Numbered from the stretch's first letter, positions 2,481-60,504 are shown. The stretch is DNA of 64,000 nt from GCA_000165345.1 CM000435.1:896001-960000; one strand, 5' to 3'. A program made the numbers and translations. Notes: generated from the sequence alone by a model not told the origin.

Positions 2481-2489
2481 TTTTGGCGG
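2481..2489. promoter_or_regulatory. E2F-like motif TTTTGGCGG upstream of SmG
   Basis: GGCGG core flanked by a T-run, ~65 bp upstream of the SmG ATG. Member of a recurring motif family in this window. Confidence 0.35.
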
Positions 2490-3265
2490 TAGTATTTTGT
2501 TGTACATTAATAAATAGTCATTTAAAGTAAAATATTATTATTTTCTGCAGGGATTTCCAGTTTAAGCAGTTAGACTGAAATTTTTGCAATTGGTTAATAT
2601 TTAAAACCTTTTGTACATAATATGAATACTTTTATATTTCATCTTAAATAAATTATTTTTGATTATGTGATATTTAAAAAATGTTTTCCACATTACATTG
2701 TTCATATCTCGCTGATCTTTTATAATTTAATAATAATAGCATTCTCATAGTTATCAAATCATTAATTATATTTATCCTTCAATTACTTGCCATTCAACAC
2801 AAATTGATTAAACTATTTAATTAAATATTTGTTGGATTTAAAAAGAACAAAACAAATTTCTGATAGAAAGGTTTTAAGCAAATAATATAAAGGTTTTTTG
2901 AGTATTTCAAAGATAGTTAATATTGCTGAAATGAAATCATACAATAAAAATCAATAAGAACACATTATAGATATACGTAACTCAAAACTATAGAAATTAT
3001 ATGCGGTACTGTGAGCTAAACAAATTATTAAGAATACCAAGAAAATTAATGCTTGAATACCAAAGCGGTCAAAATAATGAAAATTACTAATGGAAATAAA
3101 TTATTAATTAGTGCCTTGTCCCCCCACACACACGTTCAATTTTGATTTTAAAGGATTTTAATGTTAATGCATAAAATTAGGAGTTGAAATTAAAACATCG
3201 ACCTCAATACTGATTATGTAACAGAATTTGAAAATTGACATTTGATCCATAATACAAAATGAAAG

Positions 3266-5044
3266 ATGAATGACACTGATATCTCCACAAAATTTATTGG
3301 CTGGAAAACTGTTGATGGAAAGGTGTTATATAGGATTTTAGTTTGTTGTAAAAACAGCAAATATGAAATTCAAAAGCGATTTAGTGAATTTGTATTACTC
3401 CAGAGCCTGCTAGTTGAAAGAGGATTGAGTTTACTTCCTTCTCTTCCTCCTAAAACTCTATTTACAAAGAATCAAGATATGAATTTTATTAATGAACGAA
3501 TGAAAGGGTTACAATCCTACCTTACAACCTTAACTTCAAGACATGATGTATTACTTTCTCCGTTATTTATGAATTTCTTAGAGTTTCCGAATTATGAAAA
3601 TTTGCCTCCAATTATGAAAAAACTTGTAAACATTGAAGTAACAGCGGATATTGCATCAATCAGACAATCAGTAAGCGGAATTTTTATCAGTGATTCAGAT
3701 TTATTATCGGCACCACTAATGTTTGTTTCACACCAAGAAAACTCTTCTCTTTCAAGATTGGGGAGAGTTTGGAGCATAATAGATTCAGAAGAAACTGGAT
3801 CCATTTTTGTTTGGTGTTTACAACCATATTCCTCAAAAAATACGTCTTACCACTCAGTGAATATAGATTATGATACAATGACTAATGCCTTTCATAATTT
3901 GTGCAACTCTAATACAATTGATTCTTCAAAATTTTGTTGTTTAATTCATTCTGGCTTCTCAGAAAAGTGCAAGAATATTGTATTCATTCCAAAAAGAGAT
4001 TCTCTGTGCATTTTTTTAGAACATGGAGCTATAGATGTATTCGAGGGTGTATTTTCCCATCTAAAGTCAAGAATAGCCTCTGGAAACAATAGTCCTCTTG
4101 TACTAACTGAATGTATTAAGCCAAATAGAATACAGCTTCATGGCTCACCAATTACTTTTGTTTGCTCGCCATTTTCAACCGATTGTAAAGTTAGGCATAA
4201 ATACACGCTTTCTGTTGGAATAGACAATAGCATACGTTTGTTTTGTTTCGAACAAATGAAAATTATATCCGGTGGGAACTTGAATAAGCGTGTAAATGGC
4301 TCTCGAGTAATTGCATGTTATTTAGAAGATGAATTTGGAAGATTGGGTTTCTTTGGTACATCATCAGGGCAACTATTAGTCTTAGATATGGCTAGCCAGC
4401 CGCCATACCTAATAACAAACTTCAATTCCCAAGCTGATTATCAATACCCTATTACATCAATTGTAGCAAGTAAGAAGTTCCTAGTTGTTGCCTATTCGAA
4501 TATTATTAAGGTTTTCGGAATGGAAATGAATCCTAAGCAAGCAACCTGTACAATCAATGATAATCAACATATACGAAGTATTGATACAAACTTTTTTTCA
4601 GATATGGATATTGGAACAATTAGCTCACTTTATATTTATGAAGATGAATATCTATTTGTTGGTGGTACAGATACTTTTTCATTATTCAAACTTAATATCA
4701 ATCAGGAACTTACACCCCCTGTTTTACTTTTTTCATATGCAATTCACACAGGTAAAATAAACTACATTTCAGTTGTTCCAGACAATGTATTAAATATTGG
4801 CCAATTCTCCAGACAATTTCTGAAACTGCTTACAGCCAGTGAAGATGGGAGAATTATTTTTTGGAAAATTTTCAATTTGCCTATGAATCAAACCGTCAAT
4901 GTTAGTACATACGAAGAAACAATAAATGAGGAAAACTTTGAAGAAAGTAAAGTAATAAATGAGCAAATTCATTCATTAGAAAATATGAGGTCTATAGAAT
5001 TAAGCGATAATAGTGATGATGACCTTAGTTCGGCATTTAGATAG
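3266..5044 (+). CDS. PX (phox-homology) domain protein with C-terminal beta-propeller-like region
   Basis: 592 aa ORF. The N-terminus has the PX signature (RFSEF..L...L......LPSLPPK..F, ..ERMKGLQSYL). The C-terminus has WD-like segments (TASEDGRIIFWKI). Confidence 0.7.
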   Translation: MNDTDISTKFIGWKTVDGKVLYRILVCCKNSKYEIQKRFSEFVLLQSLLVERGLSLLPSLPPKTLFTKNQDMNFINERMKGLQSYLTTLTSRHDVLLSPLFMNFLEFPNYENLPPIMKKLVNIEVTADIASIRQSVSGIFISDSDLLSAPLMFVSHQENSSLSRLGRVWSIIDSEETGSIFVWCLQPYSSKNTSYHSVNIDYDTMTNAFHNLCNSNTIDSSKFCCLIHSGFSEKCKNIVFIPKRDSLCIFLEHGAIDVFEGVFSHLKSRIASGNNSPLVLTECIKPNRIQLHGSPITFVCSPFSTDCKVRHKYTLSVGIDNSIRLFCFEQMKIISGGNLNKRVNGSRVIACYLEDEFGRLGFFGTSSGQLLVLDMASQPPYLITNFNSQADYQYPITSIVASKKFLVVAYSNIIKVFGMEMNPKQATCTINDNQHIRSIDTNFFSDMDIGTISSLYIYEDEYLFVGGTDTFSLFKLNINQELTPPVLLFSYAIHTGKINYISVVPDNVLNIGQFSRQFLKLLTASEDGRIIFWKIFNLPMNQTVNVSTYEETINEENFEESKVINEQIHSLENMRSIELSDNSDDDLSSAFR

Positions 5045-5106
5045 TTGCATTCACTAGGAATAATAGATTTATAGAGACAAATTATCTTTCTTTTCTCTTA
5101 TATTCC

Positions 5107-58256: not shown

Positions 58257-60077
58257 TTAAACTAGCAAACTTAGAGGTGTATCTAAAATAGAATCTATGT
58301 CTTGGAAATTGTAGCCTTGTTCTAAGTTTCCTCCATTTGGATTTATGACATCAATAAAGCATGTAATAGGTAATGGTCCCCAAATATAGCCGTGATTAAA
58401 CGGAATATCTGGTTGAATAGATACGCATAGAAGTGGGTCGTCACTTATCATGTTAATTTCTCCTGAAACAAACCATAGCAATAGCTTTCCTTTTGATCCC
58501 TTGGAATTCTCTCCTTGGAAATGCCTCGGAATACACCAAGTCCATGAAGAAAGTGAACTTTCAGTATCATATTTACCATCAAATGGATGTATGTCATACG
58601 GAATACGGTTTAAAACTGCATCAGAACTCACTTCTTCACACTTTCCATCAATTAATCTCTTAATTTTTATTCTTTTAGTATTTTCACCTACAACATCAAC
58701 TAAAACCCCATCCAGAAGCTTCATATCTGAGCCACCAGACTTATAGACAACTACTGAACCCTTAGAAAAGTCGCTATTTGTAGATTCTGTAGGAATAAGT
58801 CTCCACCAATCTTTCTTAACTTCAAAAGTGGGGATTGAAGGAGGAAGAAAGTTCAGAAGAGAAGTTGAAATAGAAACTGGAGTGATTCCTTCCATTGAAG
58901 AAATTGACTTTAAAATGATTTCTCCAGTTTCTGTTGAAATTGATTCAATCTCTCCATTTACCCAATACAACTCATCGTTTAATCCTTCAGGATTATATAC
59001 AAACTGTACACGAATTCCAATCTTAAAATCAATCTTTGGCAGTGTATTTAACATTGACCAAGCCAAATTTGAATACTCTTCTACGTAAACGTTTTGATAT
59101 ATTTGATTCTGCAAGCAACAATCCGAGGAATTAAAATGTGGAAATAAATGAGTAGGGGCCAAATTTGCATGTCCTTTCTTTTTCACAAGAGATCTATCAA
59201 TATCACGGCAAATCAATTTGGGAATATTCTCAACTGGCATTGACTCTTTGATCAGCTCAGATCCCTTAATAGAATTTGAGTTACCATGTTTCGTTGAACT
59301 TTGTCCAAAACCTTCAATCTGAATCTTCTTTGATCTAAGAAAAGGCAATAACCATTCACTAAAATTGTTTTCTAACCCTGACCTCAATTCTTTCATCAAT
59401 TTCCTGAAATAATCTCTCTGAGTGATACCCTTGTCATTTGCTTTTGGAGGGGGGTTTGAGGACTTGTATGTATTCACCTTTGAGATAAATAAATTCAGAA
59501 TGTCTGGCCTAACTTTAGGTAGAAGTCTCCACTCCATTGATGCTACTGCTGTCACTACATGCCCTGGAAGCTTTGGAGAGATCTTTGAAATCTCTGGTCG
59601 TCTTGAAAATAACCACCAAATGTAATATGACCAATCAGAAACTGAAGAATATTGCTCCGGTGAAACTATGGTGGTTTCTTCTCCCACAATACAAGAGACA
59701 AAAATCTTCTCCATTGTTGGAATCTCTTCTTCACCACAATTCTTTATTACGTCAGAAATCCTCTTTTCTGTCCATAATTTCTTCCATAGTTCTGGTGCTG
59801 ATTCTCTTTTTTGTGCAATTCTTGCTAATAAGTGAGCTGGTATTTCTCGGTCAAGATCACTTAGTTTATTTTCTTTGCCTCTCATCAACTCATGGAAAAA
59901 TGGATTACTCATATAAGGTACGCTTTTATTGACATATTTCTCTCTCTTAATTGTATTTGCTACTTCCTTATTGTTGATGGAACTTACAATTTTATCATTC
60001 TCTAGAGCAACTAAGATATCCTCCAATACATCTCCATCCTCGCAAACTTTGGTGTTTAAATTAACATTATTACTCAT
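58257..60077 (-). CDS. Hypothetical protein
   Basis: 606 aa ORF with normal complexity. No family recognised from sequence alone. Confidence 0.55.
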   Translation of the reverse strand: MSNNVNLNTKVCEDGDVLEDILVALENDKIVSSINNKEVANTIKREKYVNKSVPYMSNPFFHELMRGKENKLSDLDREIPAHLLARIAQKRESAPELWKKLWTEKRISDVIKNCGEEEIPTMEKIFVSCIVGEETTIVSPEQYSSVSDWSYYIWWLFSRRPEISKISPKLPGHVVTAVASMEWRLLPKVRPDILNLFISKVNTYKSSNPPPKANDKGITQRDYFRKLMKELRSGLENNFSEWLLPFLRSKKIQIEGFGQSSTKHGNSNSIKGSELIKESMPVENIPKLICRDIDRSLVKKKGHANLAPTHLFPHFNSSDCCLQNQIYQNVYVEEYSNLAWSMLNTLPKIDFKIGIRVQFVYNPEGLNDELYWVNGEIESISTETGEIILKSISSMEGITPVSISTSLLNFLPPSIPTFEVKKDWWRLIPTESTNSDFSKGSVVVYKSGGSDMKLLDGVLVDVVGENTKRIKIKRLIDGKCEEVSSDAVLNRIPYDIHPFDGKYDTESSLSSWTWCIPRHFQGENSKGSKGKLLLWFVSGEINMISDDPLLCVSIQPDIPFNHGYIWGPLPITCFIDVINPNGGNLEQGYNFQDIDSILDTPLSLLV

Positions 60078-60495
60078 GGAATTTTTTTCCTCTATCGGTA
60101 ACTTTCCTGTTGGGTAATGTCCGGTTATGCCAAAGAGAAAATATAACTGTCCCGCTACCCCAATTACTTTTAAGAAAAAAAAAAGTGAATTAAATTAAAT
60201 AACTGAAAATTTCTCATTCTAATAAAAGAACAATGCTCCATTTTTTTTTTTTTTGAAACCCCATTTTACAGTTAGTAGTATCGGAATATCAATACTATGT
60301 TCTGCAACTAATCAATTCTTATAGGTACGGTAACAGAAATAAATTAATAATCAAAAAATATTAAGTAGAACCTAAAGCATTTAAAACAAATCATTTTCAT
60401 ATATCTTATCTATAACTCAAATATTGTCCAACTTTTCTCAATTTTCATCCTCTTTAACTTTCCATTCTTTAACTTAATAAATCATTAAAGGAAAC

Positions 60496-60504
60496 TTTGG
60501 CGCC
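60496..60504. promoter_or_regulatory. E2F-like motif TTTGGCGCC
   Basis: ~185 bp upstream of the PGAM ATG at 60684. Confidence 0.4.

Follow-up and report, generated by a model that had tools for sequence, protein, structure and literature searches.

Short GC-rich words, TTTGGCGCCAAA or TTGGCGGGAA, recur between the genes of Cryptosporidium parvum chromosome 7, and the question raised by this locus is whether they are E2F/DP-type promoter elements. The window (the whole stretch of DNA analyzed, 64 kb) is C. parvum chromosome 7; a 610-aa protein that it encodes exactly matched C. parvum Iowa II EAK90406.1 / XP_628577.1, and 21.6 kb of its DNA was present at 100% identity in GCA_035232765.1. The gene map comprised 37 genes, with 11.2 kb of spacer and 52.8 kb of genic sequence. 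The spacers were 70–72% AT, below the figure of about 75% given in an earlier sequence-only reading, and GC content was 0.30 in spacers vs. 0.37 in genes. Pfam scans found no E2F or DP gene encoded within the window.

Enrichment and placement of the boxes

Strict cores, defined as SGCGCS and GGCGGG/CCCGCC, were counted in intergenic and coding sequence of the window, a comparison that the sequence-only reading had proposed genome-wide, and numbered 14 in the spacers and 2 in the genes (33-fold density, binomial p = 2e-9). Dinucleotide shuffles of each spacer gave 0.89 ± 0.93 spacer strict cores, the observed count being about 16-fold above this expectation, and none of the 300 shuffles reached 14. 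With a looser pattern, the genes were depleted (8 observed vs. 15.4 expected from dinucleotide shuffles). TGGCGC ranked first among composition-corrected non-coding k-mers (15 observed vs. 1.1–2.0 expected), ahead of GGCGCC (8 vs. 0.3–0.5) and TGGCGCCA (5 vs. 0.06). Exact TGGCGCCA occurred five times (5732, 31647, 33677, 38613, and 44491; 0.17 expected from whole-window shuffles) and GGCGGGAA four times (7318, 16778, 55015 on the minus strand, and 58083; 0.31 expected), and the window contained nine GGCGCC against an expected 1.05. The cores were preceded by T at -1 in 25 of 36 cases (p = 5e-5) and at -2 and -3 in 21 of 36 each (p = 0.005); together, flanks and core form TTT-SGCGCS-AAA, the E2F consensus.

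The sites and the genes that they adjoin are as follows (strand is given where one was assigned; distances are to the start codon).

2481..2492: weak E2F-like box TTTTGGCGGTAG, divergent LSM(-)/PX(+) spacer; LSM ATG (2418) 65 bp downstream
5732..5739: palindromic box TGGCGCCA, divergent ATG8(-)/hyp370(+) spacer; ATG8 ATG at 131 bp, hyp370 ATG at 342 bp; weak GGCGGC at 5720
7316..7325, plus strand: TTGGCGGGAA; RCC1-repeat gene ATG 122 bp downstream
16775..16787, plus strand: TTAGGCGGGAAAT; ATG of a 1937-aa Thr-rich mucin-like ORF, which we take to be gp900, 384 bp downstream; also upstream of a divergent tRNA-Gly 92 bp away; weak TTGCCGCC at 16819
24116..24123: half-site ATTGGCGC, divergent GET3(-)/PDI(+) spacer; ATGs at 122 and 153 bp
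27882..27891: TAGGCGCCAA, divergent CLASP_N-like(-)/hyp121(+) spacer; ATGs at 198 and 124 bp
31645..31654: TTTGGCGCCA; RINGv-FHA gene ATG 187 bp downstream
33677..33684: TGGCGCCA; BING4/UTP7 ATG 168 bp downstream
37212..37220: TTGGCGCGC; NSUN methyltransferase ATG 150 bp downstream; kept in C. canis and C. xiaoi
38613..38620: TGGCGCCA, 210-bp divergent WD40(-)/PP2C(+) spacer; ATGs at 76 and 135 bp
42718..42731: AAAGGCGCCTAAAA; ppGalNAc-transferase ATG 42 bp downstream; absent from the earlier list
44133..44153, minus strand: TGGCGC half-site in the 21-nt block ATGTGGCGCTAGAC(A/G)TAACAT; RING-finger gene ATG (43979) about 165 bp downstream
44489..44498: TTTGGCGCCA; zeta-COP ATG (44557) 67 bp downstream
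48995..49007: GCCGGCGCGCAAA; P-type ATPase ATG 127 bp downstream
49379..49390, minus strand: TTTGCGCGGGAC, which is GTCCCGCGCAAA on that strand; Rpb4 ATG 64 bp downstream
55013..55026, minus strand: TTTTCCCGCCAAAT; hyp610 (cgd7_4230) ATG 111 bp downstream
58079..58091, plus strand: TTTAGGCGGGAAA; FCP1 (NIF+BRCT) ATG 184 bp downstream
60496..60504: TTTGGCGCC, divergent hyp606(-)/PGAM(+) spacer; PGAM ATG at 187 bp

Sequence of the kind described in the sequence-only reading was present at all 16 of its coordinates, three of them holding weaker variants (2481 TTTTGGCGGT, 24116 TTGGCGCA, and 49379 TTTGCGCGGG), of which 24116 and 49379 keep their position in other species. Its observation that long coding regions are free of the box was nearly right, the exceptions being two strict cores within CDS (25428 and 38774); the GGCGCC at 38774 has no conserved counterpart in C. 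canis, C. xiaoi, or C. muris. The 12-mer that it had noted upstream of both gp900 and FCP1 is genuine and extends to a 13-mer, TTAGGCGGGAAAT, common to sites 16775 and 58080. Additional sites were seen at 42721 and 44145, with weak ones at 5720, 16819, and 50078.

Sites were found in 16 of the 25 start-containing spacers of the window and in none of its 11 convergent spacers. Divergent spacers carried a site in 8 of 11 cases and tandem spacers in 8 of 14, the latter sites lying near the middle, where position alone cannot tell 5' from 3' association. The convergent spacers total 1,972 bp (p about 0.025 given 19 sites), and the 33 convergent spacers of syntenic loci in other species likewise contained no site. 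The motif is thus not equally dense in coding or downstream sequence. A site lay upstream of 24 of 36 genes, which is the extent to which most start codons are preceded by one, and 9 of the 25 start-containing spacers had no recognizable site. The nearest ATG was 42–425 bp from the site (median about 125 bp). Each start-containing spacer with boxes had one or a few of them, and divergent pairs often had one central site common to both genes; site 38613 is indeed located in a divergent promoter, as had been proposed. Several sites are tied to small intron-containing genes absent from the earlier reading, such as LSM (2481), ATG8 (5732), and zeta-COP (44490), and 27884 lies between two divergent genes.

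Conservation across the genus

The boxes are genuine, strongly enriched, and conserved in the genus, and they are under purifying selection, being more conserved than the surrounding spacer. In eight other Cryptosporidium species, the sites kept their positions within the syntenic spacers. The identity of motif nucleotides was compared with that of random blocks (5000 permutations) in each of two syntenic 22-kb regions and amounted to 0.72 vs. 0.49 in the first region (4 of 5000 permutations) and 0.80 vs. 0.53 in the second (0 of 5000). C. muris kept half-site cores at matching places; at the one C. muris locus compared, there were degenerate half-sites only, with weak enrichment (strict cores, 1 intergenic vs. 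2 genic).

The GET3/PDI half-site is the same in C. canis and reads GCGCGCCAG in C. xiaoi, and the CLASP_N-like/hyp121 site is kept as TTGGCGCC in C. canis and C. xiaoi and as GTGGCGCC in C. muris. In C. parvum, C. canis, and C. xiaoi, the far end of the RINGv-FHA site is separated from the ATG by 195, 195, and 196 bp, respectively; C. muris has GCGCCA. The WD40/PP2C spacer retains ATGGCGC in C. canis and C. xiaoi and AGGCGCT in C. muris, and the ppGalNAc-transferase location reads TTGGCGCC in C. canis and TTGGCGCT in C. xiaoi. The zeta-COP site has a counterpart at about 30–68 bp in all 7 species compared, and the GCGC core of the P-type ATPase site is invariant in 7 species, at 128–155 bp from the ATG in each. 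TTCCCGC-type sites precede the Rpb4 start at 46–57 bp in chipmunk genotype I, C. ubiquitum, and C. felis, and at 100 bp in C. bovis. Upstream of hyp610, C. ubiquitum, C. ryanae, and C. bovis have TTGGCGG(G/T) at a distance of 114–120 bp from the ATG, and alignment of the upstream sequences shows a GGCGG core in C. canis, C. felis, and chipmunk genotype I as well. In a 7-species alignment of the FCP1 spacer, no run of at least 5 columns other than CCCGCC is invariant, and GGCGCC was found at the matching place of the hyp606/PGAM spacer in 5 of 7 species.

Some boxes lie within longer, near-invariant composite blocks. The 21-nt block ATGTGGCGCTAGACATAACAT upstream of the RING gene (44133..44153) is invariant at 20 of 21 positions in 7 species, and GTACCTCACA, 25 bp from the hyp610 box, is almost perfectly invariant.

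The published motif and the rival explanations

The motif was first recorded in non-coding DNA of chromosome 6 (Bankier et al., 2003), Mullapudi et al. (2007; PMC1779779) then found a motif with a GGCG core, and E2F-like motif 3 ([C/G]GCGC[G/C]) and motif 4 (GGCGGG), with the consensus TGGCGCCA, were described in C. parvum by Oberstaller et al. (2013; PMC3734150). The E2F-like motif is the most over-represented upstream motif of C. parvum (161 of 200 co-expression clusters; PMC3734150, PMC4117751). The boxes of the window are this already published motif, and the finding is therefore correct and ordinary. Organism, cores, upstream location, and high frequency are alike, with no essential difference, and the window is one chromosome-7 sample of the published family; the proposal that the boxes fit the E2F/DP-type motif over-represented upstream of Cryptosporidium genes is supported by cores that match the published motifs exactly, by the T-rich flanks, and by the identity of the organism as C. 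parvum. The boxes also resemble the canonical E2F-DP site (TTTSGCGCSAAA/TTTSSCGC; for its structure, PMC3734150 cites Zheng et al., 1999) in their 6-bp CG core, T-/A-rich flanks, palindromic and asymmetric versions, use in either orientation, and promoter-proximal position. In ATAC-seq data from C. parvum sporozoites, E2F was the main motif of open-chromatin peaks and was also seen in bidirectional promoters (Xiao et al., 2025; bioRxiv 10.1101/2025.01.17.633476); the window is alike in having one or a few boxes per start-containing spacer, with a box in 8 of 11 divergent spacers. The present analysis adds an annotation-aware local count, the absence from convergent spacers, the genic depletion, and site-by-site positional conservation in eight other Cryptosporidium species, the last of which was not found in the published literature searched.

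That the recurrence is an effect of chance or composition, with GC-rich words merely conspicuous in AT-rich spacers, has a negligible probability. Three of the listed sites are degenerate and, since identical 12-mers are expected many times by chance in 64 kb, the shared 12-mer alone proves nothing; yet the spacers, GC-poorer than the genes, hold 33-fold more sites, the same-spacer shuffles fell far short of the 14 observed, the motif led an unbiased k-mer ranking, and positions are kept in up to eight other species. The k-mer ranking, the genic contrast, the shuffles, and the cross-species permutation test refute this explanation. It is also very improbable that in place of transcription starts the boxes mark some other feature, for example replication origins, recombination hotspots, or the sites of 3'-end formation or termination. 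Convergent spacers lack sites both in the window and in the syntenic loci, the distance to the downstream ATG is kept between species, and published ATAC-seq peaks lie at transcript 5' ends (bioRxiv 10.1101/2025.01.17.633476), whereas the sites near the middle of tandem spacers could belong to the 3' end of the upstream gene.

A functional promoter element read by another factor, with a coincidental or partial resemblance to E2F sites, is unlikely, although it deserves more weight than either of the above. Such an element could be bound by a different GC-box-binding protein or could act as a nucleosome-excluding or start-positioning sequence in AT-rich DNA. In its favor, boxes are very common (16 of the 25 start-containing spacers) and precede clusters whose peaks cover all time points (PMC3734150), some conserved sites lie inside longer invariant blocks (such as that at 44133–44153), and E2F/DP binding is deduced both here and in the literature. 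In the literature examined, no ChIP, EMSA, or binding-microarray results were found for Cryptosporidium E2F/DP; Oberstaller et al. (2013; PMC3734150) called for ChIP-seq, and according to a 2025 review (PMC12246861), functional validation is missing for most of the regulatory components. Against another factor stand the core and T/A flanks, close to the E2F-DP consensus, and the presence of both published variants, the palindromic SGCGCS and the asymmetric GGCGGGAA. Furthermore, Cryptosporidium is the only apicomplexan genus that retains E2F/DP, and this is its most over-represented upstream motif (PMC4117751, PMC12246861). The boxes are most probably E2F/DP-type promoter cis-elements to which E2F/DP would bind; the binding protein, and activation as against repression, we infer.

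A possible general promoter element

Animal and plant E2F proteins govern a cell-cycle/DNA-replication regulon via Rb-family pocket proteins, and the plant E2F sites are TTTCCCGCC and TTTGGCGGG. In contrast, the box lies upstream of about two thirds of the genes, of all kinds. The box-bearing genes of the window encode a chaperonin, COPI, glycosyltransferases, a mucin, and rRNA-processing factors, a functional diversity unlike a cell-cycle regulon, and a general promoter element fits better than a cell-cycle-specific switch. The box consists of a 6-bp GC core (GGCGCC, GGCGCG, or GGCGGG) with T-/A-rich flanks and lies about 40–200 bp upstream of start codons. In the putative mechanism, E2F-DP winged-helix heterodimers, for which the literature gives two E2F genes (or three) and two DP genes in Cryptosporidium, would bind it in a patch of open chromatin. 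This binding may help to establish transcription, in many cases for the two members of a divergent gene pair together. No Rb orthologue has been reported in Cryptosporidium (PMC3734150); with no known Rb-family partner, regulation may follow a logic other than that of the textbook E2F pathway.

We tentatively suggest, as a possibility of rather modest likelihood, that the E2F-type box is a genus-wide default promoter organizer and possibly no cell-cycle switch. Standing at a constant distance ahead of the start codon, a single box would open the chromatin and drive one or both flanking genes, at about two thirds of the genes overall, and its position would have been kept throughout the evolution of the genus, as far as the half-sites of C. 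muris. If this is true, the composite blocks could define transcription starts or the sites of undescribed partner factors.

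Gene map of the window

The window has a G+C content of 35% over its 64 kb, and Pfam scans indicated compact, eukaryotic genes that are mostly without introns. The 610-aa protein encoded at 53072-54904 on the minus strand (hyp610) was identical to EAK90406.1/XP_628577.1 of C. parvum Iowa II (gene cpbgf_7004230), and window 21920-43509 showed 100% identity to CP141124.1, a 1.36-Mb chromosome of assembly GCA_035232765.1. Both matches assign the window to chromosome 7 of Cryptosporidium parvum, where it corresponds to about 937-1001 kb of CP141124.1. A first gene map, based on ATG-initiated ORFs of at least 100 aa, was dropped because it lacked 8 genes that are small or contain introns and assigned several of the sites (the short GC-rich E2F-like boxes between genes) wrongly. 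The final map consisted of public-assembly gene calls carried over to the window, all of which have an ATG start and end on a stop codon there. This refined map contained 37 protein genes, with a genic total of 52,806 bp and an intergenic total of 11,194 bp.

Genes added by the assembly gene calls, and the tRNA gene
2124-2418, minus strand, LSM gene, added
5107-5601, minus strand, ATG8 gene, added
44557-45145, plus strand, zeta-COP gene, added
Also added: RPL38, a 121-aa gene, Yos1, Sec61-gamma, and a 125-aa gene
16870-16940, plus strand, tRNA-Gly(CCC)

An Rfam scan of the window returned one tRNA only, which indicates that no box belongs to a known RNA gene. No E2F or DP gene is encoded within the window. 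The tRNA gene lies in the 767-bp spacer 5' of the large Thr-rich mucin-like gene and is divergent from it; the box at 16775 is situated between the two, and a weak TTGCCGCC box occurs 49 bp upstream of the tRNA gene. The 1937-aa ORF at 10581-16394 (minus strand) exceeds the 1936-aa model of GCA_035232765.1 by one codon, with 6 mismatches and 2 gaps between the two assemblies across this stretch. Coding k-mer statistics were dominated by ACAACAAC (Thr-codon) repeats, and these repeats together with the assembly differences suggest that the stretch is probably a polymorphic repeat region.

Enrichment and 5'-side placement of the E2F-like boxes

The boxes, which include the palindromic TGGCGCCA and the asymmetric GGCGGGAA, are enriched between genes, restricted to the 5' sides of genes, embedded in consensus flanks, and depleted within genes. 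The sequence-only reading had listed 16 of them upstream of most start codons, and all 16 carried the sequences assigned to them. Its observation was confirmed with small corrections: the site at 42721 had been missed, and its remark that none were seen inside long coding regions was nearly right, with two strict cores (SGCGCS, GGCGGG, or CCCGCC) in coding sequence at 25428 and 38774. Spacers contained 14 strict cores and genes 2 in the refined map, corresponding to 1.25 and 0.038 sites per kb, respectively, a 33-fold difference (binomial p = 2e-9). A looser union pattern gave 19 sites in spacers vs. 8 in genes. When each spacer was shuffled on its own, 0.89 ± 0.93 strict sites resulted, and the highest count among the 300 shuffles was 4, compared with the 14 observed. 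Genes fell below their shuffled expectation for both strict sites (2 vs. 4.97) and union sites (8 vs. 15.4; 5/300 shuffles equally low). Whole-window dinucleotide shuffles predicted 0.17 copies of TGGCGCCA, 0.31 of GGCGGGAA, and 1.05 of GGCGCC, whereas 5, 4, and 9 were observed.

A raw Fisher test of k-mers in non-coding vs. coding DNA was uninformative because AT-rich words dominated, and it was superseded by the dinucleotide shuffles and by Markov-corrected expectations, against which all 6-mers and 8-mers of non-coding DNA were ranked. TGGCGC held the first rank (15 observed vs. 1.1-2.0 expected), with GGCGCC (8 vs. 0.3-0.5) and TGGCGCCA (5 vs. 0.06) near the top; the motif was thus recovered without prior knowledge of the target. 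GGGGGG/CCCCCC (13 observed vs. 0.9-2.0 expected), ATGCAT-containing 8-mers (ACATGCAT, AAATGCAT), and ATTAATTA were likewise over-represented in the non-coding fraction of the window, and the G/C hexamer runs and ATGCAT 8-mers agree with motifs already published for C. parvum, namely the G-box and TGCAT (AP2_1).

Sites occurred in 8 of the 11 divergent and 8 of the 14 tandem spacers, and in none of the 11 convergent spacers (1,972 bp in total; p about 0.025 given 19 sites). The nearest start codon was 42-425 bp away (median about 125 bp), and 24 of the 36 genes with an upstream spacer inside the window shared that spacer with a site. Several of the sites precede genes that were invisible to the sequence-only reading.

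Sites assigned or added with the refined map
2481, 65 bp upstream of LSM, gene not visible previously
5732, 131 bp upstream of ATG8, gene not visible previously
44490, 67 bp upstream of zeta-COP, gene not visible previously
42721 (AAAGGCGCCTAAAA), 42 bp upstream of the ppGalNAc-transferase gene, site missed previously

Alignment of 18 intergenic cores with both orientations pooled (36 flanks; background T 0.36) revealed T at position -1 in 25/36 (p = 5e-5) and at positions -2 and -3 in 21/36 each (p = 0.005). These T-enriched flanks define the element as TTT-SGCGCS-AAA, with the asymmetric variant TT(A/G)GGCGGGAA. The asymmetric GGCGGGAA boxes showed no strand preference relative to the downstream gene (2 sense and 2 antisense, n = 4), and tandem spacers were of similar length with and without a box. 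Among the latter are the FCP1-to-Band7 (151 bp, 55961-56111) and NSUN-to-GT2 (194 bp, 35351-35544) spacers. FCP1 and Band7 are merged in one 853-aa model in the C. ubiquitum annotation, and both gene pairs may be candidates for dicistronic transcripts as reported in C. parvum.

Purifying selection on box positions across the genus

Purifying selection keeps the boxes at fixed positions throughout the genus. Window 43-64 kb (region A) was compared with the syntenic 22 kb from chipmunk genotype I, C. ubiquitum, C. canis, C. felis, C. ryanae, and C. bovis, in which gene order was the same throughout and hyp610 protein identity fell to as low as 47%. Upstream of FCP1, TTCCCGCC was located 182-223 bp from the ATG in 6/7 species, with CCCCGCC at the aligned position in C. 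canis, and CCCGCC was the sole invariant run of at least 5 columns in the alignment. All seven species contained a site about 30-68 bp from the zeta-COP ATG and another 128-155 bp from the ATPase ATG, the latter with an invariant GCGC core. TTGGCGG(G/T) was scored 114-120 bp from the hyp610 ATG in 4/7 species, with a GGCGG core in the aligned upstream sequence of the other three, and GGCGCC occupied the same position of the spacer between PGAM and hyp606 (a hypothetical gene) in 5/7. No site was found in the 21 convergent spacers of region A.

Window 22-43 kb (region B) was compared with the syntenic region from C. canis, C. xiaoi, and C. muris. Six of the seven box-bearing C. parvum spacers had a box at the same distance in both C. 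canis and C. xiaoi, as exemplified by RINGv-FHA (195/195/196 bp in C. parvum, C. canis, and C. xiaoi, respectively), CLASP_N-like (205/191/199 bp), and WD40 (83/82/88 bp); the exception was the BING4 spacer, with a site in C. canis and none in C. xiaoi. The NSUN-to-GT2 spacer lacked a box in all four species examined, and the coding GGCGCC at 38774 was not conserved in C. canis, C. xiaoi, or C. muris. When motif nucleotides were compared with equal-size random blocks within the same spacers, identity was 0.72 vs. 0.49 ± 0.07 in region A (4/5000 permutations) and 0.80 vs. 0.53 ± 0.07 in region B (0/5000 permutations). C. muris kept only two sites by the pattern, with GGCGC, GCGCC, GGCGG, or shorter GCGC/GGCG cores at roughly matching places in six spacers whose G+C content was 13-30%. 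The strict motif was barely enriched in its single sampled locus (syntenic to window 22-42 kb; 1 intergenic vs. 2 genic), and the gastric clade may have diverged in the motif itself or in how it is used.

Other elements were observed near the boxes. A 21-nt block, ATGTGGCGCTAGAC(A/G)TAACAT, occurs once per locus, upstream of the RING-finger gene and about 165 bp from its ATG (window 44133-44153, minus strand; L001 20752-20772; matching place in L005-L010). All but one of its 21 positions are invariant across seven Cryptosporidium species, while the remaining spacer is barely alignable. It includes a TGGCGC half-site, is also readable as a tiny ATG-TGG-CGC-TAG frame, and far exceeds the usual length of a factor site. 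The 10-mer GTACCTCACA (TGTGAGGTAC on the plus strand; window 54989-54998, L001 9907-9916) is invariant in 7/7 species, lies 85-98 bp before the hyp610 ATG and about 25 bp downstream of the hyp610 box, and is a candidate for a second element of the promoter or start site; a similar CACCTCACACA at 16765 adjoins the box that precedes the mucin-like gene. CTAGAC/GTCTAG at 33661, 44140, and 58046 (also 16714) is no more than about 40 bp away from the boxes of the BING4, RING, and FCP1 promoters; the FCP1 and RING alignments show it to be conserved, and TTAGAC follows the ATPase box. As a partner motif it was not established, with 6 copies in spacers (one within the tRNA) vs. 11 in genes, only 2.6-fold denser.

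Proposed E2F-DP binding and probable promoter role of the boxes

Among upstream motifs of C. parvum, E2F (5'-TGGCGCCA-3'), with the cores [C/G]GCGC[G/C] and GGCGGG, shows the strongest over-representation, and it had been seen as early as 2003 in chromosome 6 non-coding DNA (Oberstaller et al., 2013, PMC3734150). A GGCG-core motif, not named E2F, was found upstream of glycolytic genes (Mullapudi et al., 2007, PMC1779779), and 161 of 200 co-expression clusters carried the motif upstream (Oberstaller et al., 2014, PMC4117751). A 2025 review writes it as 5'-[A/T][C/G]GCGC[G/C][A/T]-3' and considers functional validation wanting for most regulatory components (PMC12246861). In sporozoite ATAC-seq peaks, over half of them annotated as bidirectional promoters, E2F stood out as the most prominent motif (Xiao et al., 2025, bioRxiv 10.1101/2025.01.17.633476). 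The cores and flanks of the window fit this published motif and support the earlier attribution to an E2F/DP-type element.

The best-supported explanation is that E2F-DP heterodimers would bind the boxes within nucleosome-free promoter patches, a single box often serving both members of a divergent gene pair. We infer E2F/DP as the binding protein, as well as its activating or repressing effect; that the parasite encodes E2F (cgd1_1570, cgd6_1430) and two DP proteins, and that the motif coincides with open chromatin, is taken from the literature (PMC3734150, PMC4117751, bioRxiv 10.1101/2025.01.17.633476). E2F/DP is missing in all other studied apicomplexans (PMC4117751), and an Rb orthologue was stated to be absent, with ChIP-seq being called for (PMC3734150). 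With target genes so diverse and Rb reported to be lacking, a general function in promoters seems more plausible than a cell-cycle regulon. It is rather improbable that the boxes are instead bound by a different factor or act as structural elements of promoters. Chance origin is excluded, as it is contradicted by the Markov-corrected ranking, the spacer-vs.-gene density, the shuffles, and the conservation permutations. Because convergent spacers are empty of sites, the boxes are unlikely to act at 3' ends or in any other capacity outside promoters.

The E2F-like boxes of the window are an already known feature and not a new element, and the sole, modest addition is locus-by-locus evidence that their positions have been maintained throughout the genus. 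An incomplete literature search turned up no paper on whether site positions are conserved between species. Little is understood of how genes are regulated in Cryptosporidium, a major agent of diarrhoea in children. The literature presents the box as the commonest candidate regulatory element in its genome, and Cryptosporidium as the only apicomplexan genus that retains E2F/DP. The fixed, selected positions and the empty 3'-only spacers support the use of the boxes as promoter markers, for example in transgene design.
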